Positions 5,264 through 31,349 of a DNA stretch of 64,000 bases are shown piece by piece. The position numbers and the translations under genes are program-made. The DNA is from Cenococcum geophilum (taxonomy: Eukaryota): the NCBI GenBank assembly GCA_050273025.1, contig CP158635.1, positions 9,858,001 to 9,922,000 of the forward strand, in the 5' to 3' direction. The notes beneath the pieces were generated by a model, which saw only the letters and a list, made by a program, of their open reading frames with translations, was not told the DNA's origin and did no database searches. Every line of letters begins with the position of its first letter. The stretch's first letter is position 1.

Positions 5264-5490
5264 CGTCACGGTCTCGGTAGAATTCGGCAGAATTCGGCAG
5301 ACTTGATAGAATTTGGCAGATTTGGTAGACTTAGCAGAATTTGGCAGAATTTGGCAGACCTGGCAGAATTCGGTAGAAATTACGGATATTACGGATATCG
5401 CCAATATTGCGAATATAGGACGATCTTGCGGTAGTAGGCAGAATATGGTAGGATGCGGCAGAATGCGTGTTATGGGGTGGTCCTGTGACA
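5264..5490. mobile_element. Solo LTR-like insertion (227 bp) in the 3' UTR of element A
   Basis: Termini are CGTCAC...GTGACA (TGTCAC/GTGACA with one change), flanked by CTTAT (5259-5263) and CTTAC (5491-5495). The segment is absent at the homologous site of sister element C (minus strand, ~21805-21835). It contains internal GAATT(C/T)GGCA 10-mers. Confidence 0.75.
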
Positions 5491-5544
5491 CTTACTATTG
5501 CAAAAGAGGTTCTATTAGTTTCCTAGCATTTAAAGAGCTGCCAG

Positions 5545-5707
5545 TGTTGGTATATATTTGTTTCACGTGTTACGTGCATAGTACGTGACCTACGCGAGAC
5601 GCGTATATGTATCAATACTGCATTGTAGAATAGAACCTTAAGAATCCAATTATATATCGCACTGCACGTATATTACGTCTATTGCACCATGTTAAAGTAT
5701 CCTGATA
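5545..5707 (+). repeat. 3' LTR of element A (163 bp)
   Basis: Starts TG after GCCAG and ends CCTGATA (CA mutated to TA). The last 77 bp (5631-5707) match the U5 end of the element C LTRs. Confidence 0.8.
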
Positions 5708-5827: not shown

Positions 5828-6050
5828 TGTTAGCGACTTAGTTAATTAAGGCACGAGTACGGCAAGAGGGACGCGCAAGCCTGTATAATTGGTAGTCTAT
5901 AAATGAGGATCCAAAGCCAGAGAAAGGAAAGGAGAAGAAGGGCAACGCCGCTAGAAGTTTTATATAATCCTCGAGTTATATAAGCTTATATGACCCTACG
6001 TCTACTATAACGTCTACTATAATCTACCGTTTTCCACCAGCGCTGTAATA
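5828..6050 (-). repeat. 3' LTR of Gypsy element E
   Basis: TGTTAG...GTAATA; matches 11495-11717 and abuts the PPT. Confidence 0.92.
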
Positions 6051-9000
6051 TTACCCCCCCCCCTTTGAAAAAGCCTACCCTTAGGCTTTATATGTCCGTA
6101 TTATATCTATAGGGTATTCTTATCTATATGCTCAATAGGTAGCTTATTATCTTCGCTATACTAGCACTCTATTTACTTATTTAGATACTTTAGGGGTTCT
6201 AGCTTATTAGGGTATTAGTTATAGAACTCTTTAAGCTTTTAGGGGTAACCTATAAAGTTCTAGACGGGGTATTAGGTTAGGTCTAAATTATAACCTTTCT
6301 ATTAGATATGGTATTTTAGCGTTCCTTATACTAGTTTATAGGCTAGTATTTTATTAACTTCTTATTCGTCGTCGCTATTAACTTAAATCGGTAGTGGAGG
6401 CTCATTCTTTTGTCTAGGTAGTGGGTTATTTATAGCTTTCCGTAGCTTATCTAGTAAGAAAATAGGGTGGACTTTAATTAAGTCTAGGAGTATAACCTTA
6501 TATAAGTTGCCTTCTTTATTAAGGATCTTATATAGTCCTACCATCTTATAGTTTAGCTTATGGCTAGGCCGTTCTATCTTTTAGTTTTTTATTATAACCT
6601 AAACCTTATCGCCTACAGTAAAGTTAGGCTCGCGCCTATACTTATTTGCCTACTATTTTATTAATTTTTAGGCCTTTTCTAGGGTTTTATGGGCTACCGC
6701 CTATACTTCTTCTAAGCGTCTAGCATACTGCTATGCTTCCTTATAAGATAGTTTTTCGTATACGGTTTATAGTTCTTCCGGTCTCTTCTAGTTAAAGCTT
6801 ATATAGGGTAAGTATTCTATTTCTAGCTAAATAGGTGCAAACCCCGTAGAGTTATAGGGTAGGGTTGCCTGGGCGTAGTTTATTATAGGTAGTAGTTCGC
6901 CCTAATTATCCTAAAAGTAGTTAATAAAGGGCCAAAGTCTCTGGTCTAAGTATTAATTTATAATTTCTGTCTAACCGTCTATCTAGGGATAGTATACCAT
7001 AGAGAGCTTTAGCCTAATACTTAGGATTTAGGTAAACTTATTCCAAAAGGCTAATATAAACTGCGGCTTATAGTTGGATATAATAGTATCTAGTAGTCCG
7101 TAAATTTGGTAGACGTAGTAGATATATAGTTAGGCCGCCTCTTTAGTATTAATATTTTTATAATAGGGAATTAAAAATGGGCGCTTACTAAAGTGGTTAA
7201 CTAGAATTATAACTATATTATATCCGTCGCGGTCTATAGGTAACTTATAGAAGTCTATAAAGATATACTGCTAGGGGCGTTCTGGTATTAGGAGTGGCTT
7301 TAATAGCCCTAGGGTCTTATCTTATGGAATTGTAGACCTATAGCAGTTGTTGTAGTTCTATATATAGCGGTTAATATCTATAACTATTTCGGGCTAGTAG
7401 TAGCGGTTGCCAATAATTTTATAGGTTTTATTTTTTTAGGGTGGGCTATAAAGACCTAGGTATATGCTTTAGCAATAAGCCGAGTCCATAGGTTCTATTC
7501 CTTTATTACTACTAACCGTTTCTAATACTTAAGTAATCCATTTTTAAGGGACTATAAGCTGGTAATATTCTTTGCCTTTTTACGGTACTCCTGTAGGGAA
7601 GAGGCTATACAGTTTACCTATAGCAATTCGTTAATAAAGTTAAATCCTAAGGGGTTAATAGGATATATCTTAGTACCTAAGGAGTCTATATTTAGTTCTG
7701 CCTATATTTAGGGGTTAAGGTGCTCTAGTTATAGTAGTATCTAGGTCTATAATAAGATCTTTATAGCCGCCTAGTTACCTAGGTCCTGTTTACGCCTTAT
7801 AAAAGTATCCGCACGGTTTATAGTGCCTAGTCTATATATAATTAAGAAGTTAAATTAAGATAGGATATCCGCCTAGTATACCTATTAGGCTATAAGGGCC
7901 TTAGTTATTATAAAGTATTCTAGGGCCTTATAATCTAAAACTACCTTAATAGGCTTAGGGGTCCCCTCTAGCTATATACGCTAGTGCTAAAAGCTAGAGA
8001 TAATAGCCAGCATTTCTTTATTATAGATATGGTAGTTTAGCTTAGCATTTATTATAGTCTTTAAATAGTATATAATAAGGTGCTATTCTCTATCCGGTTA
8101 CTTTTGGGAGAAAATACTAGCTATTGCGCTATTTAAGGCATCCGTTTTTAGTATTAAGGGCTATTTTAGGTTAAAGTAGGTAAGTAGGGGAGCCGATACT
8201 AGCCGTTTTTTAAGTTTATTAAAGGCCTGCATATATATGGCGTTAAAGTAAAATAGCTAGTCTTTTTTAGTAAGGCGGTTAAGAGGCTAGGTAATCTTGC
8301 TATAGTTCTTAATAAAGCGTTAGTAGAAGTTACAGAAACCTAAAAATAATTATACCCCCTTTACGGTTTATAGGGGTGTCCACTAATTAATTGCGGCCGT
8401 TTTCTCTAGGTTGGCCTTAATTCTATTTATACTAATAATAAAACCTAGGTACTTTATACGCTTAATATTAAATTCCAATTTCCTAATATCGGCCTAGAGG
8501 CCGGCCTTGCGGAGCTATTATAGGACTTTATAGACATACTCCTCGTATTCTAACTTATTCTTAAAGTAGATTATAATATTATTTAGGTAGGCTATATAAA
8601 ATTCGTTAAGGTAGTTAAAGAGTATATTATTTATATATTGCTAGTATATAGCCGGTCCATTAGTTAGTTTAAAAGGAAGTACTTTATATTTATATGTTCC
8701 ATAATAGGTCCGAAATGTAATAAAATCTTCTAATTTAGGGTTTATTCTAATCTGGTAGAAGGCCTAGCGGATATCTAGCTTTATAAAGATCTTAGCTCTA
8801 CTTATTTAGGCTAGAGTTTTATTAAGTAGGAGTAGCGGATAGTAGTCCTTACGGGTTATGTTATTTAGCTTATAGTAGTTAATGCAGAAGTGGAGTCCTC
8901 TATTTAGTTTTTTAATAAAGAGAATAGGCGAGTTAAAAGGGGCTTAGCTAGGCTTAATAAAGCCCTTACCTAGGTTATTAATAAGGTACTACTTTATAGC

Positions 9001-11494
9001 CTATAATTTAGTAGTAAACTACTAACGAAGGGGGCTATAGCTAAGGGTATTTTCCTTATCTAGCTCGATCTTAATCTTATAGTTATACGGTTAGTAAGGT
9101 GGAAGTATATTAGACACTATTTTGGAAAATATATCCTTAAATTTCCGGTGTTAATAAGGTAGTTTTTAATCTACTAGTTCCTTATCTGTAAGCTCGCTTT
9201 CTTATTCACTAAGCTTACTTTCCTTTTCCTTAATTATTTAATTAATTTCGTATAAGCTAGTCGTAAAGGTAATAGTATTAGGCTAAACTAAGTTCTAATA
9301 GAACCCTATAGCGCTAATATAGTAGATATTAACTAGTAGGAGGTCCATAGGTTTCTTTACTAATATTTATTAGGCCGTATTTTGCGGTATAGGGTTTATA
9401 GTCTTCCTTAGCTTACGTTTTATTTTCCGTAAGTTATCCTTCTAGTTAATTAGTTTAGTATAGCGTCCAATATTTTTAGCTTTCCTTTATAGCTATATAA
9501 GGCCTATATTCTCCGTAGGGGGCTTAGCTAGGTTACTACTAACTTCCTATACCTTTAGTGCGGGTAACGTAACATAGGTAGTTTATAGGCGGCGTAGTAT
9601 ACAGATCCGTTGCGGATTAAGCTATATATCCTTCTTAGAGGCCTAGTCCCTACGCATAGCATCGGCTTAGTAATTAGTATTAATCTAGGGCCGTATAAGG
9701 TTTTTCATTATAATACTGATTTCTTTTATAAAAGAAGGGGTTAGGGGTAGGGTTTTGGGCTAGATAAGCCGTCTACTCCATATATTAAGCTATAAGCCTA
9801 AATAGGCTAGCTATTTTCTCCTTAAGATTATATTGTGGCTTCCTAGGTCCATAATAAAAAAGGGGATATTATATTATCTTTGTCCGTTAACACGGAGGTA
9901 GATACGCAAGATAGCCGTAATAGGTAGTCCTATCCGTCCGTTATACCCGCAGATAGGAATTGGTTTAGGCAGTTTTTTAAGGAGTATATTTAAAAAAAAA
10001 TTAGCTAGCTTTATAGTATACTAGGTATCTATTAAGGTAAAGGTATTTGCTTTAGAGTTAGCTAAAGCAGAGGTTAAAACTTAATATCTATTACGGAATA
10101 AAGTATAAGGGATAGTATAGCTTCTTTTACTAACTAGCTAACCTAGATCGATATATAATATATTAATCCCTTTTAACCCTAGAGAGGAGTCTTCCTCTAG
10201 GGTTCCTCTTTTTCCAACTTTATACTATCCTCCTAGATTAACAGAACCTTGCCCACTTTTACGTTTATTAGGCAATCCTTTATAATATAGCCCTTCTAGC
10301 TATAAGAGAAGTAAGCTCCCTAATTGCTAAGGGCCTATATATAGGGGTTGCTATATATAGGCTAAGCATTCGCTAGACCTATAGTAGGACTAGCTATATA
10401 GCTAGCTACTAAATTAGTAGCAAGCTGTACGGCCGGTATTATAGGAGCTGCGGATCTTACTAGGGCGCTACGGCCTATTCTTATAGTACTTATATTTTAG
10501 TTAGTAGAGCTTCTAGTCTTATACTACTTAGCTTATACCTTAATTCGATAAAAGCCCTAGTTAATAGCTAGGCATTAGTCTATAAGTTCCTTTAGCGTCT
10601 ATATAGTAGTATAAACTAGTAGTATAGCGCGCTATAGGTCTAGGGTAAGCTTATTAAAGAGGTCTAGCATTAGATCTTCCTAGGGGATTTAAGCCTATTT
10701 AGCTAGGTATAGAAAGCGGGTCTAGAAGACTAAAAAGGTCTCTATCGTTTTTATATTTAGGCTTTTATAATTAAGCTAGGCGTTTTATACTTTAAAGGGG
10801 TCCTTATAAATAAAAGATAAGTAGTTAATTATTTCTTCTTTTAAGAGGAAGAGGTTTATTAAGTCCTAGGTATATTACGGGCGTAGGTATATCTATATAT
10901 TACTACCAGTACGGCCGAAGACGTATGCTATTTTAGCTTAGGTATTAGGAAAGTAATCCGTATTAACTTTAAGCTTATTCTATAATTAAAGCTTTTAGTT
11001 ATTAAATATAGGGTCAGTTTCATCTGTAAGTAATAGGGGGTCTACAACCTTTACGGACCGCGATAATGCTAATGCTATACGTTAGGCTAGGGCCTTAAGG
11101 ACTATAGTAAGTCTATAGGTATCTAATAACTCCTTACTAGGTATAGGGGTGTCTTTAGTTTTAAGTAGTTCTTAAAGCCGTTTAATTTTAGTATTAGCTG
11201 CTGCGAGCTCTTCCTAGGGGGTTAGGACGGCGACTGTTTTACTATTGGAGGTATTTACAGGTCCTACAGTAGCTTTGCCAGCTACTGTATTTCTTAGCAT
11301 AGTAGTAGGGGTATTAAGTAATTTCCGGTTGTTTATTTATTTTTTAGGGGTTCTAGTCTATATATGTCCTATTCTTAAGTTTCGCGTTCTATTTATATTT
11401 TTTTAGTTCTAGTAGTATCCTTATTCTATTTATAGTCCGTAGATATTTTTAAGTTCCTTCTTAGGAAGAAAGAGTAGTAATAAGCTTTGGATAA

Positions 11495-11717
11495 TATTAG
11501 CGACTTAGTTAATTAAGGCACGAGTACGGTAAGAGGGACGCGTAAGCCTATATAATTGGTAGTCTATAAACGAGGATCCAAAGCTAGAGAAAGGAAAGAA
11601 GAAAAAGGGCAACGCCGCTAGAAGTTTTATACAATCCTCAAGTCATGTAAGCTTACGTGACCCTACGTCTACTATAACGTCTACTATAATCTACTGTTTT
11701 CCACTAGCGCCGTAACA
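11495..11717 (-). repeat. 5' LTR of Gypsy element E
   Basis: TATTAG...GTAACA; matches 5828-6050 and is followed by TSD AAGTG. Confidence 0.92.
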
Positions 11718-13571
11718 AAGTGCTACAATCGAGCGACTACCTAAGGAAGTAACTAGGGCGATTTTATAAGGCCCTACGACAATTAAATATAAGACTTATA
11801 TAGTTAGTAAAGCTTATAAGATTATATTAAGAAGGACACCTATAGATAAGGCAATAAGGCCTTTCTTCTATATATATATAGATTTAATTTAGGGAATTAA
11901 AGCCTATAATAGATATAAGTACGCAATCTATTTCCTTAACGATTTAGTTTAAATAAACAAAGTTAAAACATTCGTATAGAAGTTATTAACCACCTAAGTA
12001 AGTATTAAATATTATAATATAATTAAGCAACGCTACGGCTTTAAAGTCGTTATTATTTATATTAATAACGAGTTATTGCTTAGAGGTAAATTTAATAACT
12101 AAACCGCTGAAAAAGATATTATGGTAAAGTACTTAGCTCTAAGTACACCAAAGTAGAACGGTCCTGCGGAACGTTTTAGAGGGGTAATTATAATAAAGGC
12201 TTAATATATGTAAATTAAAGCTTAACTATTAGAGGAGCTCTAGCCTAAGGCCTTTAAGGTAATAGCGTATATAATAAATAGGATATTAAGCAGAAGGCTT
12301 AACTAAAAGACACCTTTTAAAAAGCTTTAATTAGTAATAGATCTCTTACCAACTAAACCAAATATAGCTTACCTACGCGCCTACGGCTGCAGAGCCTATC
12401 CACTTAAATATAACATTCCACGCACTTAAAAACTTGCTCCTAGAGCCTATATTAGGTATTTAGTAGGGTATAATTTAATGAATATCTTTTAAATATATAT
12501 ACCAAGCGAAAAAAAGGCAATTTAAATAAGAGATATTACGTTTAATAAGCGACTTATCTATAATAATAGCAAGCCAAATCTTATAAATTTGCTTTAAGAG
12601 AAAGCCGATTAAATGCTAGAGGTAATTAATATAATTAACCCCAATAGGACGCTTTAAGAAGACTTAAATAAGCACATAAATAAGGAAGATAAGATTTTTA
12701 ATAAAATTTAGGTAGACACTAATGGAAATTAATAGGTAGATTTTAGTAGATAAGTTATTAATTATAAGCAACTAGACGCTTAAGGCGATAACTTAATTAT
12801 AGTAGATACCTTAAAGAACGATCCTCTACCTAGCCTTTTTATACTAGAACTAATACTAAAACCTTAATTAAATCCAACCAATGCAGGTTCCTTAAGCTCC
12901 TTAAGCACCCTAAGATTCTCCGTACTTTCTACCCGTTAACGCCCCGGTTTTAAATACGTTAAAATTAACCTAGAGGAGTTAAAGGATAAGAATAGTGCAG
13001 CCGTTAATAAGGATAATATTATATAAAGCAAACGGTTAAAGAAGCTAGTTAAAAGATATAAAGCTTATTTAACTTACCTTAAAGAGGTAGACACCTTCTA
13101 ACCGCTTTAAGCAGCCTTTTATATAGGGCTTAAATATTAAAGGAAAATATACTATAATAAGCTTCTACCTCTACCTAAGAACTAAAAGGAGCTTATAAGA
13201 TACTAATATAAGGTAGAATTTCTAATAGCTGCTATAAAGGAGTACACGGATCTAGATAATTGTGGAATATTTAAAATTATAGATAAGACTTAATCTATTA
13301 AAACGGTACCTATTACCTAGGTATTTACCTACAAGACAGATACTAACGGATATCTCACAAAGTTTAAAGCTTAACTTTATATAAGAGGTAATCTATAATA
13401 GTCAATCTATAAGGATATATATACAGCAACTTTAGTAGCTAAAGTCTTTAGAGCTCTCGCAGCAATTATTGCAGTATTTAATTTAGATGTTTGGCAGGGT
13501 AACGCTATTAACGCGTTTATAAATAGCCTAATTAATAAAATTATCTATATTAAATATCTAAATAGATTTAC

Positions 13572-13858
13572 TATAGCTAGAAGCGTTAGACATATCGCGA
13601 GGACGGCCAACGCGCTAGTAGTAAGCGAACCAATAGTGCGATGGCAGAATATAGCAGAATATAGTAGGACACGGCCAACACGCTAGTAGTAAGCGAGCTA
13701 ATAGCGAGGTGGTAGAACATGGCAGAACATAGCAGGACGCGCCTAATATATATATATGACGCGCGTCGCAAGTAGAAAAATAACAATCCACTAATAACAC
13801 CGCATAGTATATATTATTGTAATATATATATTCTGCACGTTGTTAAAGCATACTAACA
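13572..13858 (+). repeat. 5' LTR of element B (U3 contains a ~68-bp tandem duplication)
   Basis: Matches 21187-21473 and ends GCATACTAACA. Confidence 0.92.
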
Positions 13859-16728
13859 CTAATTAGTGAGCGCGCATAGATTAGGAAATACGCATTAGTT
13901 TAGAAGACGTCTAACACTCCACCTTATAACGGCCTTATTTTAGTTAAAGAGAGTACTAAGGACAATCTGGAAGCTTAATAGCTTACTGTCGCCTACAGAC
14001 CCTTATTACTGCTAAGAATTAAACAATACACTCTAGATTTAGAAGGATATTGCTTCCCACCTTATTAAAAGTTAAGTTTTTAACAACTTATATTAACTAC
14101 CCTTTCTCCCTCCTTACGAATACTATAAATACTCTCTCTCTATAAACACCGACACCCTCTATTAATAACCTCTTTATAACCAGATAAGATGGCTATACCT
14201 ATAGACTAGAAGGCAGAGGCAGAGCGATAGAAGAACAGAATTAATATACAAACTGTGACCAACGATGATATTACAAACTATATTTAGTTTAAGACATAGG
14301 AATACAATAATGACAACTCTGTTAACAGCGCTTTATAGGACTACTTTTAAGAAGACTTTAAAGAGTTTATTATGGATATATTCTCTTAAGCTAGCACCAA
14401 AACCCTTAAAAATCTTTTCCTCCTTCTTTATAAAGGAGGAGTATACATACGCAAGAACGATAAACGTACTAAGCTTATACAAGTTTTGGCTAATATACTA
14501 CTTAAAGAAACTTAACACAAATAGAGCTAAGAAGAATTTAATAAAGCCTATAAGGAGCAATCTAATAGCACCTTTAAGTCTAATATACTTACTAACGTAT
14601 TATACGCGGCTTAAAACACAAGACTGTATAAACCCTTATACCTTAATTAATACCTAAAAGCACACCTATAACGACTCTACTAATGTCTTAAACAACTCCG
14701 CCTCTAAGTTCACTACTTCTACTTCCGTAGGCCACGACACTTACTACCACTATACCCGTTACCACAGCACCTACTTCTATACTAGGGTATAGAAAGGAAC
14801 TAGCGAATATAGCTAAGTTATACACGGACGACTAGAAATATAGTGGTACTAGCGGAAACTTTAACTTTAAGTTAACAATCTTCTACGATATCTGTAATAG
14901 AGTAGACGTTCCACCTAATGCCTACCTTAAGGCTCTCCCACTTATGCTACAAGGCCTAGCTCTGGATCACTACTATAATACTAGACTTGCTATACTTACG
15001 TTTAAGGACGCTTATAAGTCACTTTATAGCTTCTTTAAAGGACCTAGTTCTAAACGCAAAAGCCTTAATAAATGGAATTTAACATTACTATAGATAGTTA
15101 TACAAAAGAATGCGGACAAATTAACTAGTTAATGTCTTTAGATACTGGTTACTAAACTCTCTTAACTATAGCATAGACTGAATTCAGAACTATAAGGAGT
15201 CCTATTCCTCTATAATAAGCTTATTATATCTTATTAGGGGATTCCCACATATTAAATTACTGTATTAGATCCACTAGATAAACTAGGCCCCCTTATTAAT
15301 AAACTATAATCCTTAATTACGGCTTATAAAAAGCAGAACTTAGAATAAGTTTAAGCCTATTACACAGACCGCCGATACCTTAAAAGGAGAGACAACTATA
15401 ACTAAAATCGCAATTATAATCAACCTTAATTCCCTCCTTAATACAAACCACGTTGCTTTATATATAATAAGGAGGACTATCGCTTATAGAAGTATAGTAA
15501 GGAAGAATAAGAAGAGGCGAAGGCTTAGTTTAGAAGTATTAATAAGGACAAGTTTAATAAGTTTAATAATCGCTTTACTTAACGCCTTAATTAATATATC
15601 GCCGACTATAAGGACAATAATGGTATTAACTTAGAAGAAGAGCTTAAAGAAGTCTTTTATACACTAACTATTAATATAAGTACTAAGACAGTCAACTAGA
15701 ACAATTAGTTGCATATTAATTACTTCTACACATCCTTTGGTTAAGTTAAGTAATAGGAAGCAACCCTTATAGCTACTAACCTAGCAAATAAGGCCTTTAG
15801 TCATTTAGTTATAACTATAGATAGCGTAACTCCTTTTATATAAACACCTCTTGTAACTAATAAAGACCTATTTACTTATAATATAACCACGTCCCGCTAC
15901 ACTGCAGACTACTTTCTAGGTATTATAATCAATATAAGAGCCTCTAAACGCTCTACGGCAGGATATAGTTAGTTCTTAGTATTTTAAAGACTTAATACTA
16001 ATGTATAACTTAATATAACTACGCAAGGCATAGTTAATGTATAATTCGGTATTAGATTAACCTTATTAATTAAATTAGCTAAAGTGGCTACCCCTATTAA
16101 CACAATCGAGTTTTATATTATTAAGGTTAATACCCCGTTTTTGCTTTACTTAGCAGATATAGACCACCTATAAGTATATTTTAATAACTTAAAGAACTTG
16201 CTAGTTATATCTCGCAGTACAGTACTAGTTATACGTCGTTTTGGCTACCCTTTCCTACTTTAGAATATATCCCTACGTACTTACTTAACTAAGTTATTTA
16301 AGCAAAACCCTTACTACTTAACTGATGTGGAACTGAAATGACTATATCGCCGTTTTAGCTACCCTTTAGTTGAGCGTCTTACGCGAGTACTTAAGCGCTC
16401 AGGATATAACGTTGATAGTAAGACCTTAGACCATCTTATACGCTACTGCTATTATTATTAAAAACACGGAAAATCACCCAGTAGATTTAGATTTATAATA
16501 TATAATAATGTTAATTTTAACTACTTAATCGTAGTTGACATTATATACATTAACGGCGCACCCCTTCTATATATCGTTAATAAAGGAACATAATTTTAAG
16601 CTAGCAGATAGCTATAAAGCATCAGCGCTAAATATATATGGGATATACTACGAATATACTGGATTAATATATATTTAGGACCTCCTAATATAATTATATA
16701 TAATATAGGCAAGAACTTTATAAGTAAG

Positions 16729-18761
16729 TGTCTGAATAAGGTTTTGCAATACGGTGGATACGGTTGCTTGTAACCAATTGGGTTGATCACGTGAGCTAAG
16801 CGAGCTCAGGAGGTCTATTAAATTCCACCTGTAGAAGTAGAAGAGAAGAACGAGACAAATACAATTGAACCAAAAACCCCCCCACCGTGATTCCAACACT
16901 GATCAGTGCTGCACAGATCAGCAAGGTATAACGAAGAGAGGCACTGTCTGATTCTCTAGACCTCTTGTTGAAGGCTAAGAATTAAGGTATTGCTTGCTAA
17001 GCCCAAAGGCCAGTTTGTGAGGTTACTCGCGCTTCTAACCTGCGTCTATTACGCCTTTAGAGCAACTAGTTTGTGGGTATATCCACGCTTCTAGTCTAAC
17101 TGTCGAATTAACTGCGGAACTAAAAGATGGCTACCTCCGCAACAAATACTACCGCGATAGCTACCTCCGCGATGGCTACCTCCGCGTCAAATACTAAAAA
17201 ATGGGAGACTAAAAAATAGAAGACCGGAATTAACGCGACCGCAACCGATATCAAGGAAGTCGAAGCATTCGTTAATTGGCGATTATCGATATATAAGGAG
17301 AATGGATAGAAGGGATTCGACCTATGGGAGAGCTTTATCGACGATTTTGAGTCGTTTACGAGGGATATACTTAATAATCTTGGCAAGGATCGATTGAAGA
17401 AGATCAGGGATTACCTCCGTGAAAATAGAGTATACGTACGGAAGGAGGCAAGGAAGTCAATTGCAGACGGCCTCTTAGGAGCTATTCATGAACCAACTCC
17501 CTCAAAATGGCCTACCGACGACCCTGTCGACGACCCTACCGACGACCCTACCGACGACCCTACCGACGACTCTACCGACGACCCTACCCCACCTCTACTA
17601 TCGACTGCTCCCATTCAAACTACCCCAGCTATAGACTAGCTCGCCCTACAAGGAAGCTTCGGAAGAGAGATCACCAACTTAGCTAAGCTCTACACGGACG
17701 AAGTCAAATACTCTAGTGAACAAGATAACTTTAATTTTAAGTTTAAGATCTTCTAAAACTACTGCCTCTAAGCCGGCGTCCCTAAGCAAGTGTATATTAT
17801 TGCTATTCCTACTATACTCCGCGGCCTTGCTCTTAAATACTACTTCACCTACCTTAAAGATCTTAACCTTCTCGAGAATATATGCATAGGCCTTAAATTA
17901 TACTTTAAAGGCGACAAATATAAACGCGATATCCTATCAAAATGGAATGCAATTACGCTTAAATAAGTCACTGCTTAAAAAGGACTTAATATAGGCCAAG
18001 CATTTCAGGTATTAATTGACGAGATGTGGTAACTATAACGCGGGTTAGCAAAGGACCTTTAAAATAACACGATATTCTATAATAAGCTCCTTACTGCGTG
18101 CTAAGACGTATTAGCTTGCAAACCAGCCTACTTTTAACCCGCTACTACCCTCGCCGGCCTTATTAGCGACATTAAATCCTTAATCGCGACGTACGGTAAA
18201 TAAGAACAAGAGATTAAGTTATTCTATACCGACCGACAATACTACCCCTCCGACTAACGATACTACCCCCCTAACCGTTAACACCGCAACAAGGGCAAAA
18301 AGTGCTTTGTATATAATAAATCTAAATATTGGTCTATAAACCATATAAAAGACGAAAGGGACCGAAGAATACGTTAATATGTCTCCGACTTTAAGGGCAG
18401 CAACGGTGATACTGAGGATAACGTTAAATAAGGAGATTAGGGAGCCTCTAACTTCTATCTTAATATAGAACCCTATTCTAGTTATTATAACAACCCTAAG
18501 GCAGAGGTGTTTTGGACCAAATTTTCAAGGGAACAGGAATAGAGACTATGGACTTATTTACCACTTTTCTTATTTTCTTAGTTGTTGCCAGTGTCTGAAT
18601 AAGGTTTTGCAATACGGTGGATACGGTTGCTTATAACCAATTGGGTTAATCACGTGAGCTAAGCGAGCTTAGGAGGTCTATCAAATTCCACCTATAGAAG
18701 TAGAAGAGAAGAACGAGACAAATACAATTAAACCAAAAACCCCCCCACCGTGATTCCAACA
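16729..18761 (+). mobile_element. Element F: 2033-bp non-autonomous gag-only LTR retroelement (GalEa-type), TSD GTAAG
   Basis: 170-bp LTRs at 16729-16898 and 18592-18761 differ at 6 transitions, all in CpA/TpG context. TSD GTAAG at 16724-16728 and 18762-18766. Palindrome CACTGATCAGTG at 16897-16908. gag starts at ATG 17127, with DDPT repeats and a knuckle KCFV(C)NKSK(C)WSINH at ~18300. No protease, integrase, RT or RNase H is present. Confidence 0.92.
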
Positions 18762-21186
18762 GTAAGGAATTTAAGCAGTACGCTATAACATTTAGAACAA
18801 TTACAAAAAGCGTACCCGTTAAAGCCTATAACTTAATTGGAATAATAGAACGCTATTATAGTCCCCTTCGCCGTATATACCGTATTATTACCACGGAACT
18901 ACTAGACATTAATAAAGACATAGCTCTATAAATGGCTTTTAAGGCAATTAACGATTTAGTAGGCCCTAACGGCCTTATACCCACCTTACTGGTATTTAGA
19001 GCTTACCCGTATATAGTGGAATCCGATATACCTAACCCTATAGTTATATAACAAGCTGTAGCCCTTAGGAAAGCTATAAAAGAAGTTAAGAATATTAGAG
19101 CCGAACGTTAAGTAGCAGATGCTCTTAATATGCGCAACGGCCCTAAAATAACCGCAATTTACGACCTACTACTTAACTCACTTATACTGGCATAGAGAGA
19201 AGGACCTATAGGCCAGCCTAGTTTTTAGTCAGGTCCCTATAATCTACTTAGTATTAATAATAAGACCTATACTATACAACTCCCCTATAGCCCTGTTAAC
19301 TTTTACAGTATAGTTATAAAACTATACTTATAAGAACCTAGAGATATAGAGGATATATAACCTAATAATAAAAACGAACTACCTTAGTTAATTATAGAAC
19401 TACCTTAGAAACCTTAACTAGTTAAGCGAGGACGAGGTAGACCACGTAAGTATCCTATCGCAGTTAATACTGTAAATATATCCATATACTTATAAGATAA
19501 AAATAAGACTAATAGTAAGTTTATAGCCTTACGATAAAAAGAGGTTAAAGGACTACTTAAGAAAGGAGTCTTTAAATTAGTTAATATTAAGGACGTACCT
19601 TAAGGCAACAGAGTATTTAACTCTAGATTTATTGATGAAATTAAGAATCCCGGTACTAACAAGGCCTTTAAGAAATCAAGACTAGTTATATAGGCCTATA
19701 ATAACCTAGAAAAAGACCTTATACTAACCTAATTACCTATAATTTAATAAGTTAGCCAACGCCTTATTCTCTGTATTACGGCTATAACCTAGACTAATAA
19801 TATACACCTTTACTTACAAGATATCTTATAAGCCTACGTTTAGTTAATTATAAAACTAAATTAAGACTTCTATATCCGAGCACCTCTTAAACTTAGTATA
19901 GCACTTAGAGTCTTACAAGGCACAATCCTTAAGGTCGTCAGACCTTTATACAGCATCTTAGAAGCAGGCAATTATTAGTTTAAGACCTATTATAACTACT
20001 ATACTAAGGAGTTAAATATAAACCAATTTACTTACAACCCCTACTTACTTTACCTTAATAATTCTACAAGCTTTGGAATAGTTGGCCTTCAGACTAATAA
20101 TACCCTCTTCTTAGCCAATTCGGTTTTTGCAGCTTTAGAATAAGAAAAGATTAAGAAAGCAAAGTTTCTAACTAAGGAACGCGAGTACCTTACACTAGAG
20201 CACCCAATTAAGTTTAACGAAGGCATTATTTAATAACAGGACTATATAATTATACTTATATAGGAGCGCTAATACTAGAACCTAACCCTTGTTAATATTA
20301 AGGAAGCTATTATAACAACTAGCTCCAGAGGTATTATTCGTACGGCACTCACACCTAAGGACTAATACGTCGCCCAATAAGTAAGAGGAGCTTATATTGC
20401 GTCCGTATGCCAGCCTAAAGCTTCTTTCAATTTATCCTACGCTGCCTAGGTAATTAACCCTGACAAGAAAGACACAAAACTACTTAATAAGAGAATTTAG
20501 TGGCAAATTAAAAACTTAATAAGAGGTTTAAGCTTTGTTAAACTTAATATAGAGATACTTTAACTGCTTATATTTACCAATTCCTTATTTATAAACAATA
20601 AGGACCTCTTATTACAAATTAGATATATCCTAGTACTAGCAGACTTATCAAATAAGGTAAATATCGTCCACTAGTCCTTAGTTAAGTGTAAGAGAGTCAC
20701 TAGAAGCGTACTAGCCTCCGAATTATACGCTATGGCCTATAGTTTTAACATCGGCGCTGTAATTAAGACCACAGTTAAATTATAACTCAATATTAGCCTA
20801 CCGCTTATCCTTTATACCGATTTTAAGTTAATCTACAAATGCCTTATTAAGCTAGGAATAACACAGGAGAAGAGACTTATAATTAATATTATGTACCTAC
20901 GCCAGTTATATAAAAGACGTGAAATAGCTAAAGTTAAGTAGATTAACGGAGACAGCAACCCTGCGGACGCTATAACTAAAAGTAAACCGTTATTAGCCCT
21001 TAAGCGACTTATTAATACAAACCAAATTAAGTTAGAGATGGTAGAATGGGTAGAATGTTCTACCGATAATAGCGTTAATTTAGAGGCATAGGGTAGGGAA
21101 GGAAGGGAGGAGAAGTGCGTATATAGATTTCTCGGACTACATAGTTATAGCCTACTAGTTCTTCGTATTTTCTAAAGTACTTCTAG

Positions 21187-21473
21187 TGTAGCTAGAAGCG
21201 TTGGACATATCGCGAGGACGGCTAACGCGCTAGTAGTAAGCGAACTAATAGTGCGATGGCAGAATATGGTAGAATATAGCAGGACATAGCTAATACGCTA
21301 GCGATAAGCGAGCTAATGGCGAGGTGGCAGAATATGGCAGAATATAGCAGGACGCGCCTAATATATATATGTGACGCGCGTCGTAAGTAGAAAAACAATA
21401 ATCCACTAACAATACCGCATAGTATATATCATTGTGATATATATATTCTGCACGTTGTTAAAGCATACTAACA
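21187..21473 (+). repeat. 3' LTR of element B
   Basis: TGTAGC...CTAACA; matches 13572-13858. Confidence 0.92.
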
Positions 21474-24400
21474 TTTACTGTCGGTATACTTTAATATAGT
21501 GTAATAGACATAGTATATATGCAGTGCGGTGTGTAGTTAGATTCTTAAGGTTCTAAGTATACGCCTACCTATTTCCACTACAAAGATATTAGTTCCGCTT
21601 ACCGCCCTTAATTAAGCTAATAGCGATTTTCCATACCGGGTATAGAAAATCCTAATTAGTCCGCTTAACAATAGAGCCGGTAGAATTCTACACCGCTACC
21701 CTATAGAATTCTGCCATATTCTACCTACCCGTCTTCCTCTACCATATTCTGCCTACCCGTCTTCCTATACTAGCAACTCTTTAAATGCTAGGAAACCAAT
21801 AGAACCTCTTTTATAATAATAAGTATGTTTTAATACGTAACTGCTTTTAACTTCTTTATATCAAATCTCCTTTTATATTAAATATCCTTCCGTTCCACCC
21901 ATTTTATAGCCTATAGTTCTAAATAATTAGTATTAATTAACTTCTTAAGAGCCGTAAATGCCTTGCTCTTAGTCATTAAGTTAGCAGGGTTACTATTACT
22001 ATTAATCCACTTAACTTCTGTAATCTTTTTACGCTTATATAACTAATAAAGATATATAACGTCTATTATAAGGCGTTTCTCTTATATAGTGCCTAGCTTA
22101 ACAAGATATTTGTAAAGTAATTTTAAGTTAGTATAAAGTATAAGTGGGAGTTCGATTTATAGGAGTTATTTAATAATTAACTTAATTACGGCGCCGATAT
22201 TAAATCTATAGGCCATTATATAAAGTTTTAAGGCTAGTACGCTTCTAGTAACTCTCTTACACTTAATTAATAACTAGTAAATAATATTAGCCTTATATAA
22301 CATGTCCTCCAATACCAGTACGTATCCTATTTATAATAAGAGGTCCTTATTATTAGCGAATAAGACATTAATAAAAGTAAGTAGGCGTAATATATTAATA
22401 TCTAATTTAATAAACGTAAGGCCTCTTATTAGATTGTCGATCTACAGTTATAGTTGTTTATTAAGTGCTATAACATCTTCCTTTTTAGGGTTAATTACTT
22501 AGGCGGTAAAAGAGAGATTAAAGGAAGCTTTTAGTTGATATATAGAGGTAATATATATACCCCTTACGCGTTACGCAACGTATTATTTCTTTATAATTAG
22601 TATATTACGGATAATACCTCTTAAGCTCGTGGTTGTAGCTATTTTACTAAGGTGGACTATATTTAGGTTCTTACACTAGTATTCCTAGGTTATTGTAATA
22701 TTGCCTTCCTAAGAGAGTTAAATAATACATCTGTTAAATTTAAGTGACTATTTAACCATAAGTTGCTCGCGCTCTTTTGCAAGAAAGTAAGCCTTTTTTA
22801 GATGTTGTTGCTCCGCGTCTATAAAGGTAGTATTAGCTAGAAAGAGAGTATTATTAGTTTAAAGGCCGATAATACCAAAGTAGTTAGAGATGTTGCTCTA
22901 TAAGAGGCAAGGGTCGTATATTAATAAGTTTATATTTAACTCCTTAATATAGTAATTATGGTAGGTTATAAACTAGTAATTACCTACTTCTGGAACACCG
23001 TATAAAGGCTTAATTACCTTTAGGATTAAGTTCTTTCTAATACCTAGTTAGCTTCCCAGTTTATAAGGTAGTTAGATATAAAAGTCTTAATTTAGCGTTA
23101 TAAGAGACTGGATATACGCCTAGGAGATATCTTATAGGTATAACTATATGCCGTTACCTCGTAGTATTGCTGTAATGCATAGAATAAGGCATTAGCTAGC
23201 TTGTTAAATAGTAAGTAACTAAGTTAATACGATACCCTTTTTAGGATTATTATATACTTAGATAATAAGTCTCGATTTCTTAAAGGCTTTATTAGTATTG
23301 GGGTTCTTAATCTTATCTATAAATTATAAGTTAAAGATTCTAACTCCTACGGGTACGTCCTAAGGGTTAATTATCTTAAATACACCCTTTTTAATCAGTC
23401 CTATAATTTCCTTTTAACGGGACGTCTTAAACTACTTATAGTTGCTATCCTCTTATAAGAATACGGTGATGTTAGCGGTATTAATATAAGAGGAATACTT
23501 ACGGGGTCTTCCTTTTCCTTAGTAAGGTGGTTATACTTCTCCAGTTTTAGTAAAGGACGGTTTCTATATAGAGACGGTTTCTATAGACGGTTCGTATATA
23601 CAGACAGTTTTGTTAACTTAAATATTATTAACTTAAGTGCCGTTACCTTAAATATCTTTAGCTTAAATATTTCTGGGGTCTATTAAGTATGGTTTAACAG
23701 CGGTACTATAGAACTTCGTAGGGCCGTTAGGTAAGTTAATAGCACACATTTCCCCCTTAATATTTAATAGATTATATAGTCCTACCCAGTATCTAGGTTG
23801 TCCTATATTACCTTCTCTTTAAACTAGTACTAATAAGTTAAGGGGTAGATCGTAAATTGCGGTAGTGCTAGGGCTATTATATATATTAAGTGCATCTGCA
23901 ACCTAGCGCTCTGCTTATATCTTCTTTACTTCCTCTATAGCTTTCTTAAATATAATCGCACGCTATATTACTATAGGTAAAGGTATATCAGACTCTGTTA
24001 TTTGGGGGTACGCTTTAAATACTAATAATATAGGTATTAGGCCGTCTAGTCCTATAGAGTTGTTAATTGCTTTAAAGACTATTTATAGTACCCTATCCTT
24101 ATTAATTTCTAGTATCTTAGAAGTAATAATGTGGTATATATATCGCAAGGGGCTATAGTAACGCTCTACTATACTAATTATGTTATAAGCTTCAACCGGT
24201 ACGCTCTTTATAGTAGTGCCTATATTAATCGCATATTGCTTAAACTCTCTACTAATAAAGTTCTTACCTATGTTATATATAATCACATCTAGGGGGCCTA
24301 GGTATGTGTTAATCTAGCACGCTTATAACATGTCCCATATATACTTAGCGCTAATATTTTATAACTATCTACCTGCTTAAAATTGGGTACCTTTATTAAT

Positions 24401-27400
24401 AATATAAAGTACGGGCTTGCCGTTAATATATATAATATTAACAATAATACAGTAGTTAAAATTAACGTTGTCTTTTAAGGTAAATCTAAATTTGCCTAGT
24501 GACTTTCCGTACTTTTAACAGTATAAGTAGTAGCGGGTAATATACTTAAGGGTTTTACGATTAGTATCGTTTTTATAGCTAGCGCGGTCCAATATTTTTT
24601 TTAAGTCGCTCTACTAACGAATATCTAAAGCGTCGGTGTAGGCGTCGCAATTCTATATTAGTTAAGTAGTATAGGTTTTGGTTAAAAGACTCCGTAATAA
24701 ACACGTGTAATAAAGTATTTTATAGTAGAAATAGGTATCCGAATTAGCGTACGACTAGTACAGTCTTTAAGGGGGCTATTAGGACATTCTTTAGGTTATT
24801 AAAGTACACTTATAAGTTATCTATATCTGCTAGGCAAAGCAAAAAGGGGGTATTAACTTTGGTAACGTAAAACTCTACTATACCTATTAGTGTAGCTACC
24901 TTAATAGAACCAATAGAAGATATAGAACCTATTCCGAACTATACGCTAACTGTGCCTCTTATAGACTTGTTTAACTATACTTTATTAATCTTTTAAAGTG
25001 CGAGAAACTAACTATATCCTACTATAGAACGTTTAGAGGCTCTAGTATTAATTATTATACCTATAAACTTTATAGAGGTATAGCGTAAGGTTGTATTATA
25101 CGCAAATAGGTTTATGTTAGTAGGGAATATATCTATTATAGTATTAGTAGTTATAACTACGTGGCTATATACTCTATTAGCTAGTTCTAATACTATAGCA
25201 GTCGCATTATCTAGTTTAATCTCACTATATAAAGTGTAGTATATTATAGCCTAGTTGTCTTTATTTAATAGAGTGCTAGGGTCCATATTAACTACTAAAG
25301 CATTAAATACGTTGGTGATCTCATCGTTTTCATTATTGTCCTCGTCGTCGTTGCCTTTATAGTCTATAATATATTGCTTTATTCGCTCCTAAAAGCGGTC
25401 CTTAAACTTATTTTTAAACTTAGTCTTAGACTCTTCTTACTCCTCTTTAGTATGTTTCTATAAGTAATATCCTTCCTTATTATATATAAAGCAACGTAAT
25501 TTCTGTTGGTTGCGATTATATAGGGGGTTACTGCAATTACTACAGTTATTATAGTTGTAGTTATTATCTCTTCTATAGAATCGTCGGTCCGTAAAGAAAG
25601 TTTATATCTTCTCCATATGCTCTTTCTTATATACTATAATAGACGATTAAAGTTTATTAATAAGGGCTTTAAAGTTATTTAGTAGGTTAGAGACTGTATA
25701 TCTATATACTAGTATTCCCTAGTAAGAAGTGACGATTTTATTATAAAGGAAGTCTATAGTTTATAAGGTGGGTCTAAGGCCGTACTATAGTTAGCGAAGT
25801 CTATAAATTAGTAATTAGAGATATTTGCTTATAGACTTGTCTATATTTCCTACCATTACTATTATAAGTATAATGGTATTCCACTTATCTAGGTTCTTAC
25901 GTTAAAATCCTAGTCCTTTAAAGAAATTCTAAAGGTGCTTGCAAGCTTTGGCAAATAATAGGTAAAATAGTTAGTTTATATAGAAGTGGTCTAAAGCTAA
26001 TCCTTTTAATATAGTAGGGAATGCCTTAAGGTAGGCTTCTTAGGGTACATCCGCTTAATTACAGATGTTATAGAATATTATTAATTTATAGTCGAGGCTT
26101 TTGTTTATACCACCGTATTTCTGCTTCTCTATATATATCTTAGCTGCATTTACAATTTCCTTTCTATAACTAGTTGCAGTAATAGGGCGGTTCTCCTCGT
26201 CTATAGGTTATACGTAGAGTTACTATATTATTATTACAGATTAAGGTATAATAGATAGTGTAAAGGTAAAGGTAGTTATAAGTTAAGGTATAATAGATAG
26301 TATAGAGGTAGAGGTAGTCAGTATACTAGTTAGTTAGGTTACAGTAGCTTTAGCTTGTTATTACTCCTCTAAAGTACCCTTTATTATATATACCTTAATC
26401 GATCTAAATAGCATTAGTCCATACTTATTATCGGCTAATTTAATTATCTCTCTACTCTATTTAATTTAGTCTTCTTTTTATACTATTTTGTATAAAGACT
26501 AAGGGAGCGTTTTGCCTTATTTATAGTTAATATTAACCTATACTCCTCTAATATTTAGGTAATTATATAGTTGCTAAAGCTAGTATAAGGGGACTTATAT
26601 AAAGATATCGACCATAAAGTCCTTAAAATCTCCCTAGAACGATTCCTAGAGTATTAAGTCTAGCTAGTTATATATCTCCGTGTATACGTACATCTTATAT
26701 CATACATAGTCGGTCAGCTTATCCTTAGTGACTTCTATTAGGTTAATTCTATCTTCCTATTTAGCTACTTCTTCCTTCCAGTCTTTCTCTATTCCTAATA
26801 TCTTGTATTTTATATATTATTTAAGTAGGTAAAGGTAAGGATAAGGGTGTTCGTAGGGTAAAGGTAGTGGAACGGTTGAGGTAGTTAAGGAGGCGGTTAA
26901 GGAGGCGGTTAGGTAGGATAAGGTGTTTTATATAGTAGTCCTCTAAAATAAATAGAATGAGATATCTAGTAGTCGTTATAAATACTAAACAAGTACTTCT
27001 AGGTAGTTTCTCTTCTTCTCTTTAACTAAAATAGGCTAATATAAAAGGTGGATAAGTATAACTATTTTCTAATTTGCTGTAAGGTGGACAGTATAACTGT
27101 CTTCTAAGCTATCTACGTGTTTCCTAATCTGTGCGCGCTTACTAGTCAGTATTAGTATGCTTTAACATAGTATAATAGACGTAGTATACGTGCAGTGCGG
27201 TATATAGTTAGATTCTTAAGGTTCTAATATCGGGAAAATATTCGTAGGCTGGGTTTCAAGTCGACTTTATTAAGCGCGTTTCGCGTAATTAATATGCAGT
27301 TAACCAACTTAATACATTTAAAAGTTAAATGACACGCAGTTGACTAACTTAATATATTTAAAAGTTAAATAATATATAATTAACCTATAATTAACCTATA

Positions 27401-27513
27401 ATTAACCAACTTAATATATTTAAAAGTTAAATAATATACAGTTAACCAACTTATATATTCCTTAATATATAATTAAGGTAATATAATAGATTATTTTTAA
27501 GTTATATGCTTAA

Positions 27514-27791
27514 GAGGCTCTATACAAAGCTCTATATAAAGCTTTACGACAGAGGCTCTGTATAAGGCTCTGCACGAGGCTCTATATAAGGCTCTATATA
27601 AGGCTCTATATAAAGCTCTGCGTATAGATACTCTATATAAGGCTCTACACAAAGCTCTATATATAGAGGCTCTGTATAAGGCTCTATACGAAGCTCTATA
27701 TAAAGCTCTACACGAAGCTCTACGTATAGAGGCTCTGTACGAGGCTTTACGCAAAGCTCTACGTACGGAGGCTCTACACGAAGCTCTATAT
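27514..27791. repeat. 12/15-bp minisatellite (RARGCTCTRYAY) in element G, about 22 units
   Basis: Directly visible tandem array. Confidence 0.9.
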
Positions 27792-27902
27792 CGGGTCCCC
27801 GTACATACCTCTACTAAGTTACCCCCTTTGCAGCCACCTTATTTTTTACCCTTCCTTATATCCTCCCTACCTTAGGAGGTACTGGAATAGCAGCTAGTAG
27901 AG

Positions 27903-28735
27903 GACCGTCGCCAGAACTAGACAACCGTCGCTAGAACTAGACGACCGTTGCTAGAACTAGATAACCGTCGCCAGAACTAAACGACTGTTGCTAAGACTAG
28001 ATAACTGTTGCTAGAACTAGATAATAACCGTTTAAATAACTAGCCAGCAAACACTACAAACGATTTAATTAATTGATTAATTGAATTAAACTAGAGCTTT
28101 AATATCGGCCCGTTACTAAATCGAATTAAGACTTCCTAGGGAGGCACCCTAGATAACTACCGTTTAAATGTACAGCTAGCGAACGGCTATAGAGAACGAT
28201 TCGAATTAATAAGAGCCTTTAATTAGGCCGACTCCTCCTCTAAATTAAACTAGACACTGACGCAGGCAGGCAGGCAGGTAGGTAGGCAGGTAGGTAGGTA
28301 GATAAATAAGTAGGTAGGCAGACAAGTAGGTAGGCAGGCAGGTAGGCAGGTAGGAGAGAACCGTTGCTAGAACTAGACGACCGTCGCCAGAACTAGACGA
28401 CCGTCGCCAGAACTAGATAACCGTCGCCAGAACCACGACCGTTGCCAGAACCAGACGACCGTCGCCAGAACTATGACCGTCGCCAGAACCAGACGACCGT
28501 CGCCAGAACTATGACCGTCGCCAGAACCAGACGACCGTCGCCAGAACTATGACCGTCGCCAGAACCAGACGACCGTCGCCAGAACTAGACGACCGTCGCC
28601 AGAACTAGACGACCGTTGCCAGAACTAGACGACCGTCGCCAGAACCAGATGACCGTCGCCAGAACTAGATGACCGTCGCTAGAACTAGACGACCGTCGCC
28701 AGAACTAGTAGACGATCGTTACTAGAACTAGACAA
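27903..28735. repeat. Two arrays of the 20/17-bp unit GACCGTCGCCAGAAC(T/C)AGAC (27903-28020 and ~28359-28735) separated by a unique block and a (GCAG/GTAG)n tract
   Basis: Directly visible tandem arrays. Confidence 0.9.
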
Positions 28736-28961
28736 CGACCGTTTAAACAACCAGCCAGCGAACACCACGAACGATTTAATTGATTAATTGAATTAATCTA
28801 GAGCCTATTACCGAATCGAATCGAATTAAGGCCTCCTAGGGAGGTACCCTAGATAACCACTGTTCGAATATATAGCCAGCGAACGGCCATGGAGAATGAT
28901 TCGAATTAATTAGAGCCTTTGATCGGGCCGACCTCTCCCCCGAATTAAATTAGATACTATA

Positions 28962-29340
28962 GGCAGATGTAAACAGGTAGGCGATATAGATAGGTAGACA
29001 ATGCAGATAGGTAAACGATATAGATAGGTAGGCGATGCAGATAGGTAGGCGATGTAGATAGGTAGGTGATGTAGGTAGGTAATGTAGATAGGTAGACAAT
29101 GTAGACTAGTAGACGATGCAGACAGGTAGGCGATATAGATAGGTAGACGATATAGATAGGTAGGCGATGCAGACAGGTAGGTAATATAGATAGGTAGGTA
29201 ATGTAGATAGGTAGATAATGCAGACAGGTAGATAATGTAGATAGGTAGGCGATATAGATAGGTAGGTAATACAGATAGGTAGGTAATGTAGATAGGTAGG
29301 TAATGTAGACAGGTAGACGATATAGATAGGTAGCAGATGT
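28962..29340. repeat. 17-bp minisatellite (GATGCAGATAGGTAGGC-like) in element G
   Basis: Directly visible tandem array. Confidence 0.9.
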
Positions 29341-31123
29341 AAATATAATAGATTATATAAAGAAGTGTATATAATTTATCTTAATAGCTTTATAAACGGC
29401 TTTAAAGTAGCCTTTATTATCTAAAATTATAAGTTATATAGGTTGCGCAGGTTACGTAGGTTGCGTAGGTTACGTAGGCTATGCGCAGGCTACGCGCAGG
29501 CTGCGTGTCAAATGAACTCAATATAGGCTGGTTTGTCAAGTTGGTTAATGCCCTTAATGGCCCACTAACGACGCCAACTTCTAGCAGCTAAGGTCATTTA
29601 CAAGGGACAATATTTTGCCGATAAAGTACACGCCTACCCATTTCCACTATAAAGATATTAGTTCCGCTTACCGCCCTTAGTTAAGCCAATAGCGATTTTC
29701 TATACTAGGTATAGAAAATCCTAATTAGTCCGCTTAACAATAGAGCTAGCAGAATTCTACACCGCCACCCCATAGGATTCTACCATATTCTACCTACTCG
29801 TCTTCCTCTACTATATTCTGCCTACCCGTCTTCCTATATTTACTATTAAGGGTAAATGTCTACTACTATATAGAGCTCTCTATAGACTTTAACGATTGCC
29901 ACGTCTTTAGCATAATAACTTTAGTAATTAGCTTGTTAAATTAGGGTTAAAGCCCGTTAATAGTAAGCCGTGTCTCTACTATAATAACTCACTAATTATA
30001 TTCTTCTATATAGACGATATCTGCGTCTCCTTTACTAGAGAAAATTAATTAGAGCTCTAAAGCTTTAAGGAAGCACTAATAAAGAAGTATAAGATAAAGG
30101 ACCTAGGTGAACTATCCTAGTTTTTAGGAATTTAAGTCTTAAGAAATAGGAGTTAGAGGAAGCTATAGCTCTATTAAGACTTCTATATTAAGAAGATTAC
30201 TAATATATTTTACCTAACTAATATACGCTTAGTTAGTACACCTATAAGCACTAATAAGCTCCTACCTAACCCGGAGAAAGCTTTAAAGTAGGAGATCTAC
30301 GTCTACTAAAGGATAGTTAGATTACTACTCTACGCAACCTATATTATAAGACTTAATATAGCTAGAGCTTTAGGCAAGCTATCGGAGTTCCTATAAAACC
30401 TCTTACCTCTATATAACGCCGCGGCCCGTTAAGTAATTATATACCTTTATTAAACGAGGACTCTCGCCATTAAATACTTAGGAGAGAATTTAGGAAGTTA
30501 AGCCTTTACGGGGGCAAGTAACGCGGTATTTAGAGACAATTTAATAAGCAGACGCAGTATGGAAGGATATTTGTTCACCCTATTTAGAGGAGCAATTAAT
30601 TAGCGCTCTACTAAGCAGATATTTATAACGAAGTTAAGTACGGAGGTAGAGCTTACGGCTCTATTTTATATAGAAACGGAGTTAATCTAGTAGAGTCGCT
30701 TCTTTAAGGAAATTAAATTATCCTTAGATAAGGAACAAACAATTAGCTATAATAATTTATAGACAATTAGACTGCTTATAAAGGACGGATAAGAGCTCTC
30801 TATAAAGCTTTAATACGTTAATATATACTATTACTAGCTTTACTAAGAAGTATATAATAGCCGAATTAAAATTAATTAGACGCCTATAGCTGCTATAGTC
30901 GCAGACAGCTTAACAAAGGCCCTACTACGTTAGAAGTATAAGGCGTTTATTTAACAGTTAAATCTTATTAATATTAAGGATCTAATTTAATTTAATTTAA
31001 ATAATATTAGGCAAGGTAACTATAGAGGATTTCCTTTAAAACTTAACACCAAATTACCTATTGTAACTTTTCGTTCTATTTTCTATCCAGCTGCTTAGTC
31101 AAGACTGAGCAGCTAGGGGGGTA

Positions 31124-31349
31124 TGTCAACCGTTGAGGTCACTCTCAGGTACTACCTTAAGACTCACCACCCTGTTCTCGTATATCTTACTACTGTCTCG
31201 GTCAGCGACTCGGTCAACGACTTGGTTAACGACTTAGTCTCCGACACGGTAACCAAATTAGTCTACTACCCTTTTTCTTATGTATTTATAGAGGCTCTAA
31301 AGCCACATTCAATAGACAGAGTTCTTCTTAGTGACTTGTCCGTCCGACA
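31124..31349 (+). repeat. Probable 3' LTR of host Copia D (right end uncertain: 31349 or ~31404)
   Basis: TGTCAA follows directly after PPT AGGGGGGTA; candidate end is CCGACA. The partner LTR is outside the window. Confidence 0.6.

Follow-up and report, generated by a model that had tools for sequence, protein, structure and literature searches.

Two different retrotransposons of the Copia superfamily, B and C, are inserted tail-to-tail on one 5-bp target in the 64,000-nucleotide stretch of DNA analysed here (hereafter the window; C1:9858001-9922000 of genome G000). The target sequence TTTAC is found three times on the plus strand: to the left of B (13567-13571), between the two 3' LTRs (21474-21478), and to the right of C (29839-29843). 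Three equal 5-mers located exactly at LTR ends are not a sequence coincidence, and the triple target site duplication (TSD) described in an earlier note was confirmed at these positions. The arrangement is probably the result of a sequential double insertion, in which the second element entered the target that was regenerated by the first. Since two different Copia elements share a single 5-bp target, the earlier claim that the TSD of the first element was the exact point cut by the second integrase also holds.

G000 consists of 178 Mb in 7 contigs, and the window itself was chosen out of a large scan. Positions 1 to ~32,000 of the window form a repeat island in which RIP indices are strong, and the remainder is genic, with ordinary genes at 36758-60001 (NmrA-like, carnitine acyltransferase, DUF7082 and organic solute transporter). 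At the left end of the window lies element A (1-5707), which belongs to the same family as C (84.5% at the nucleotide level); its LTR head of 163 bp is unlike that of C, but the U5 is similar, and several LTR heads occur on one tail in the clade of B and C. It is followed by a Gypsy element on the minus strand with a 5-bp TSD (5828-11717). Genome-wide, a few Copia RT frames are without stops, with open frames of up to 1,637 aa. In some contigs, the top Copia RT matches are concentrated in a single stretch (C1 ~14 Mb, C3 ~13.9 Mb, C5 ~17.4 Mb, C6 ~5 Mb and C7 ~15 Mb), and these clusters are perhaps centromeric.

Element B is a RIP-mutated GalEa-type Copia element on the plus strand (13572-21473), ~5.9 kb long when a nested insert is subtracted. 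Its two 287-bp LTRs (5' LTR, 13572-13858; 3' LTR, 21187-21473; both plus strand) are 90.9% identical, with 26 transitions and 0 transversions. The nested insert is a short LTR element of 2.0 kb (16729-18761, plus strand) that has 170-bp LTRs, its own 5-bp TSD and its own Conserved Hairpin Site (CHS); its LTRs are 96% alike, it has a gag-like region, and its GC content is above that of its host. Element C is a RIP-mutated GalEa-type Copia element of another family and lies on the minus strand (21479-29838), with a length of ~6.0 kb minus its insert. Its 291-bp 3' LTR lies at 21479-21769 (minus strand), and its 5' LTR is split into a U3 part (29624-29838, minus strand) and a U5 part (27150-27227) that, together with the adjacent CHSeq1 (27141-27149), covers 27141-27227 of the minus strand. 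The 2.4-kb insertion between these parts (27228-29623, strand not assigned), which is absent from the earlier note, has short terminal inverted repeats, a 2-bp duplication and inner tandem arrays of 12-, 17-, 20- and 40-nt units; it is multi-copy, its left end matching 7 other loci. The locus contains four complete LTRs, none of which is common to both elements, the elements are inverted relative to each other, and nothing but the 5-mer TTTAC lies between the last base of B and the last base of C.

Judged by sequence, B and C are two different families of fungal GalEa-type Copia elements. Their RT-RNaseH regions are 66.5% identical in nucleotides, with 206 transversions, and their pol products are 57.6% identical in amino acids; since they are separate families, two cDNAs and two independent insertion events are required. 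A CHSeq1 after the 5' LTR replaces the PBS in both elements, being one of the two common 9-mers in B and a transition variant in C, and a CHSeq2-like 9-mer sits 17 nt downstream. In B, this CHS (13859-13884, plus strand; CHSeq1 at 13859-13867, CHSeq2-like at 13876-13884) occupies the position expected for the tRNA primer site. GalEa elements have TGT..CA LTRs of 138-311 bp, a 5-bp TSD and a length of 5.4-7.0 kb, and the values here are 287 and 291 bp, 5 bp, and net ~5.9 and ~6.0 kb, respectively, with some LTR ends changed by RIP. The motifs KSRLVI/QTDD/ADxxTK appear as KSRLVI, QTNN and ADAITK in B and as KSRLII, xTNN and ANLMTK in C, and the D-to-N changes fit RIP. GalEa elements have a single large ORF; in B, one register is recognisable, with 38 stops in 807 codons, and the search for Pfam domains, including RVT_2, found none in B or C. 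The fungal GalEa elements described in passages of Donnart et al. (2017, PMC5445492) resemble B and C in having a CHS instead of a primer site, TG..CA LTRs, a 5-bp TSD, a KSRLVI-type motif, a comparable size (net ~5.9-6.0 kb here) and LTR ends common across families; unlike them, B and C have ORFs wrecked by RIP and give no Pfam RVT_2 match. The same passages confine GalEa to Pezizomycotina, and double insertions are not described in them. The presence of RIP together with GalEa elements suggests that the genome is that of a filamentous ascomycete.

The host of the double insertion is a Copia element (D) older than B and C, and the insertion lies in its RT gene. The left part of D (11723-13566, plus strand) extends up to RVT_2 position 99, and the right part (29844-31123, plus strand) contains RVT_2 positions 111-242 and the coding sequence that follows; what is probably the 3' LTR begins at 31124. 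The earlier note had also claimed that removing both elements restores the RT frame of the host. As the two flanks correspond to RVT_2 positions 3-99 (left; E 1e-4, below the cut-off) and 111-242 (right), the register is indeed restored. The frame itself is closed by many RIP stops, 29 of them in 418 codons when the right part is read in its best frame. No working gene is affected by the double insertion.

Uninterrupted copies of the host provide the empty site. When the left and right host flanks were aligned separately to 14 such natural copies, taken from 40 listed matches, the two alignments overlapped by exactly 5 nt in all 14. The left flank stops at the first TSD copy in each of them, and the third copy is consistent with the same alignments. 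The 5-mer at the empty site is TTTAC in 11 copies, TTTGC in 2 and TTTTC in 1. A hot spot at this base was considered and rejected: in a pattern search, 0 of 44 other host copies carried an insertion there (the pattern misses copies through its last letter, including the window's own copy).

Sequential double insertion would comprise four steps. One GalEa element entered the RT gene of the older Copia element, its 5-bp staggered cut duplicating TTTAC, as the TSD and the empty site show. The duplicate beside the 3' LTR end of this first element remained a typical target for the weak palindromic motif of the clade, as its score shows. A later GalEa element of another family would then have cut both of the same bonds in this duplicate and, by inserting in the opposite orientation, have left three copies, as the geometry suggests. 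RIP later mutated all parts, and two more elements nested inside; both the mutations and the nested elements are observed. The features of a double-insertion dimer are present, namely one TSD-length target copy in the junction, the same outer flanks and a single copy at the empty site. Target preference is also present, weakly. One point against the sequential reading is that the site is neither a hot spot (0/44) nor stronger than average, its motif score being the median.

The target preference was obtained from a catalogue of 166 U5 ends of the B/C clade. The TSD of the clade is 5 bp, as seen at the 75 sites where the two flanks could be matched, of which 59 have identical LTR pairs, 7 have pairs that differ by transitions only and 9 are solo LTRs; 25 LTR ends remained unpaired. 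The target motif of the clade, W..nTWAn..W, is palindromic and weak (2.7 bits); it raises the frequency of same-site hits 5.5-15 times (an in-sample estimate), and the probability of the same 5-mer is 0.0245 versus 0.0061 in the background. The empty site scores 2.68 bits, which equals the median of real sites and lies in the top 5% of the background. After insertion of B, the TSD copy beside the B end scores 2.65 bits, versus 0.62 bits for the copy beside the C 3' end after insertion of C, which mildly favours the B-first order.

Base-exact reuse of a target is not confined to LTR ends. In two copies of one host repeat, the same base bears an insertion with the same TSD, a solo LTR of the 172-bp type (L132) in one copy and an element of the 248-bp type (L100/L133) in the other; a third copy of the repeat is empty (L118, ~4800). 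This is one credible pair among 116 homologous site pairs, versus 0.5-1.3 expected, where the expectation is derived from the 54 pairs within 300 nt (0.09 per base) times the motif boost. One further homologous pair with zero offset was dropped, its position having been projected from 488 nt away.

The earlier note had suggested that the integrase is attracted to an already integrated U5 or LTR end, and such targeting is the alternative that survives best, although we consider it unlikely. According to it, an integrase re-cuts the earlier CA-to-target bond, across families or even superfamilies, and new elements land flush with old ones. Re-cutting this bond is chemically like disintegration. 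With B inserted first, the geometry demands a cut exactly at the terminal bond of B, and the last 18 nt of B and C are identical apart from transitions. The shared U5 termini reported earlier are no special clue to attraction, however, because the passages of Donnart et al. (PMC5445492) describe LTR ends common to several GalEa families, termed the 'extended CHS', as a general trait of these elements.

The genome-wide distribution of flush junctions also bears on this alternative. G000 has at least 623 CHS-bearing 5' LTRs, and ~900 GalEa insertions are estimated, packed into repeat islands. Among the at least 623 elements, the window pair is the only base-exact GalEa tail-to-tail pair found. 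End-directed integration would predict many pairs of the dominant GalEa family, whereas no base-exact tail-to-tail pair was found among the 1,586 U5 ends of that family. Likewise, no real tail-to-head pair within 30 nt was found (two matches were judged non-U5 from the matched text). Of 172 outward clade flanks, 19 have an LTR-like start, but just two of these, both from the window, are LTR ends (about 5 of the 19 were without a usable homologue for judging). Another LTR terminus lies within 600 nt of 8 of the 170 other clade flanks. Note that all of these junction counts are lower bounds because the search patterns extend to some of the families and orientations only; judgement by eye was applied to 63 and 52 flank rows, and the mis-called LTR starts L087, L115 and L151 were excluded from the pair, flank-abutment and 600-nt counts.

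Several other candidates were discarded. Three of the four sites found by a general tail-to-tail pattern are not LTR pairs, and neither of the two sites inspected among the 10 of a further search is one. The repeated flanks L134/L135 and L129/L130 are U5 look-alikes internal to repeats, and L215/L216 is a single duplicated composite. As a separate observation, at least four copies of another repeated element (L129, L130, L051 and L052) contain a piece of C-type LTR.

One locus was retained: at L226 (C3:25364763-25367787, minus strand), a Gypsy 3' LTR is followed by exactly 5 nt and then a GalEa 5' LTR. In the Gypsy group concerned, the single element for which both ends are available (L140) has a 5-bp TSD, and L226 is a candidate second double insertion, across superfamilies. 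The other three of the four loci in that search lie inside repeats. This second flush candidate speaks for end-directed integration, but the LTR of the Gypsy partner has a different end. Facing LTR ends were also observed 12 nt apart at L057 (C4:2981593) and 41 nt apart at L217 (C1:8136386-8136458); with L226, they hint at crowding near LTR ends, a modest enrichment that is compatible with small numbers. If end-directed integration were true, it would account for the window pair, L226 and the crowding seen at distances of 12-80 nt to other LTR ends.

Whether such targeting is needed depends on the expected number of junctions. A uniform null gives only 0.01-0.14 exact GalEa-GalEa pairs per genome (if the target space is taken as 100-178 Mb), a low value that would favour end-directed integration, and local clustering must therefore be invoked for the double insertion. 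An empirical null that uses the local LTR-end density and the motif gives 0.3-2.3 flush junctions with any LTR genome-wide, an estimate based on 8 events, the in-sample motif and an incomplete LTR library. The number seen is one confirmed junction (the window) plus the candidate L226, so a single double hit of this kind per genome is no more than chance would give. The argument of the earlier note that a base-exact repeat insertion is unlikely by chance in a 30-kb island used the wrong denominator. Since the weak motif and the genome-wide null suffice and no other base-exact GalEa tail-to-tail pair was seen, special targeting of LTR ends is not needed; the junction is a rare hit among packed GalEa insertions.

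Coupled integration, which the earlier note had also raised, is improbable. Here, two intasomes, or cross-packaged cDNAs with common att ends, would have used one target before repair ended. Similar ages of B and C are possible, both LTR pairs differing by transitions only (0 transversions each), and the shared U5 and CHS would permit cross-mobilisation. However, the middle copy would have to be double-stranded to be cut, which implies repair between the two events. Moreover, RIP obscures the ages, relative dating of B and C failing because the LTR pairs differ by transitions only, and there is just this one case. Coupling is thus not supported, and sequential insertion remains the preferred reading.

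It is very improbable that the junction is an assembly artefact or a merge of two alleles, one with B and the other with C. In run X1 (sample S1, possibly the assembly's own sample), a short-read contig matches 21450-21555 with zero mismatches at a depth of 94, and in run X5 (sample S2, from a separate study) another matches 21450-21551 with zero mismatches at a depth of 9.5. These contigs contain 24 nt of B, the 5-mer (the middle TSD copy) and 73-77 nt of C. Confirmation of the junction by reads, as proposed in the earlier note, was accordingly achieved in part: contigs of two samples from two studies match without mismatch at about single-copy depth, but they are short-read contigs, not long reads, and their 24 letters of B fall short of the 31-letter bridge rule. 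Runs X6 and X8 gave no junction piece among 32 of 8,390 pieces, which proves nothing. No allele with only B or only C was seen among 24 of 310 loose ends of contigs from four runs. In addition, a merge of alleles would still require B and C to be inserted on one base.

Recombination is the least probable of all and is largely refuted by the anatomy. It would have produced a shared-LTR tandem or placed one element in an LTR without integrase, and RIP would have made the 5-mers alike. TTTAC does resemble the RIP form of TTTGC, which is kept in 8 of 44 host copies, but the four LTRs are complete and unshared, the two families are inverted, and the spacer has exactly the TSD length, which RIP cannot set.

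Related arrangements have been described in other organisms. According to passages of McGurk and Barbash (2018; PMC5932611, bioRxiv 10.1101/158386), double insertion at one target gives rise to TE dimers in Drosophila, since the first insertion keeps and duplicates the target. Their examples include P-element dimers and two Rover LTR elements in inverted orientation, separated by a target-like palindromic spacer of 6 nt, and dimer junctions there have stronger motifs, as a trend rather than by definition. The B/C pair shares with these dimers the single TSD-length spacer in the junction, but differs in that two families of fungal Copia are involved (the Rover pair is of one family), the motif is weak, and all three TSDs and the empty site are verified. 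The inverted arrangement of the B/C pair also prevents its expansion to an array through unequal exchange. Tandem LTR-retrotransposons of plants, in the passages of PMC11899658, are likewise adjacent LTR elements within matching outer TSDs. However, they share an LTR, are direct and near-identical, lack an inner TSD and are ascribed to recombination, whereas the B/C locus has four LTRs in inverted elements and an inner TSD. Nested LTR insertions of plants, in the passages of PMC6911290, also enter an older LTR element with a 5-bp TSD and an AT-rich centre, and their targets are weakly palindromic; in those cases, the nesting lies inside elements, while C and B meet flush on an existing TSD. 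A literature search by title and start of abstract, with most subscription papers outside its range, found no published case in which LTR elements of two families form a pair with three copies of the TSD. The B/C pair is explained by an established process that acts at roughly the rate expected, and what is new is that it is cross-family, fungal and verified at all three TSDs.

The survey also revealed three inverted LTR dimers, each composed of an LTR, a CHS palindrome and an inverted LTR, in three GalEa-type families: L220 (L220:4696-5196, i.e. C5:13271895-13272395; 2 mismatches and a 45-nt deletion distinguish its arms), L228 (L228:1276-1748) and L229 (L229:~1346-1701). All are joined at the 8-nt CHS palindrome and lie within a matching 5-bp TSD. 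They are three of five pattern sites, four of which were inspected; L230 is an ordinary 5' LTR. This structure suggests that plus-strand strong-stop DNAs ending in the CHS palindrome may anneal, extend on each other and integrate by two U3 ends. In the passages of PMC5445492, no model fits the GalEa CHS, and the same literature search, again with most subscription papers outside its range, found only this 2017 paper relevant to CHS priming or inverted LTR dimers. The dimers bear on the unexplained priming of reverse transcription in GalEa elements, which have no PBS, and are possibly of more interest than the B/C junction.

For the GalEa elements of this genome, the B/C pair is a clean case of weakly site-specific LTR integrases reusing a regenerated TSD across families. 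Such pairs mislead annotation, because a single outer TSD encloses two elements. If flush insertions were enriched, integrases would read old LTR ends as targets.
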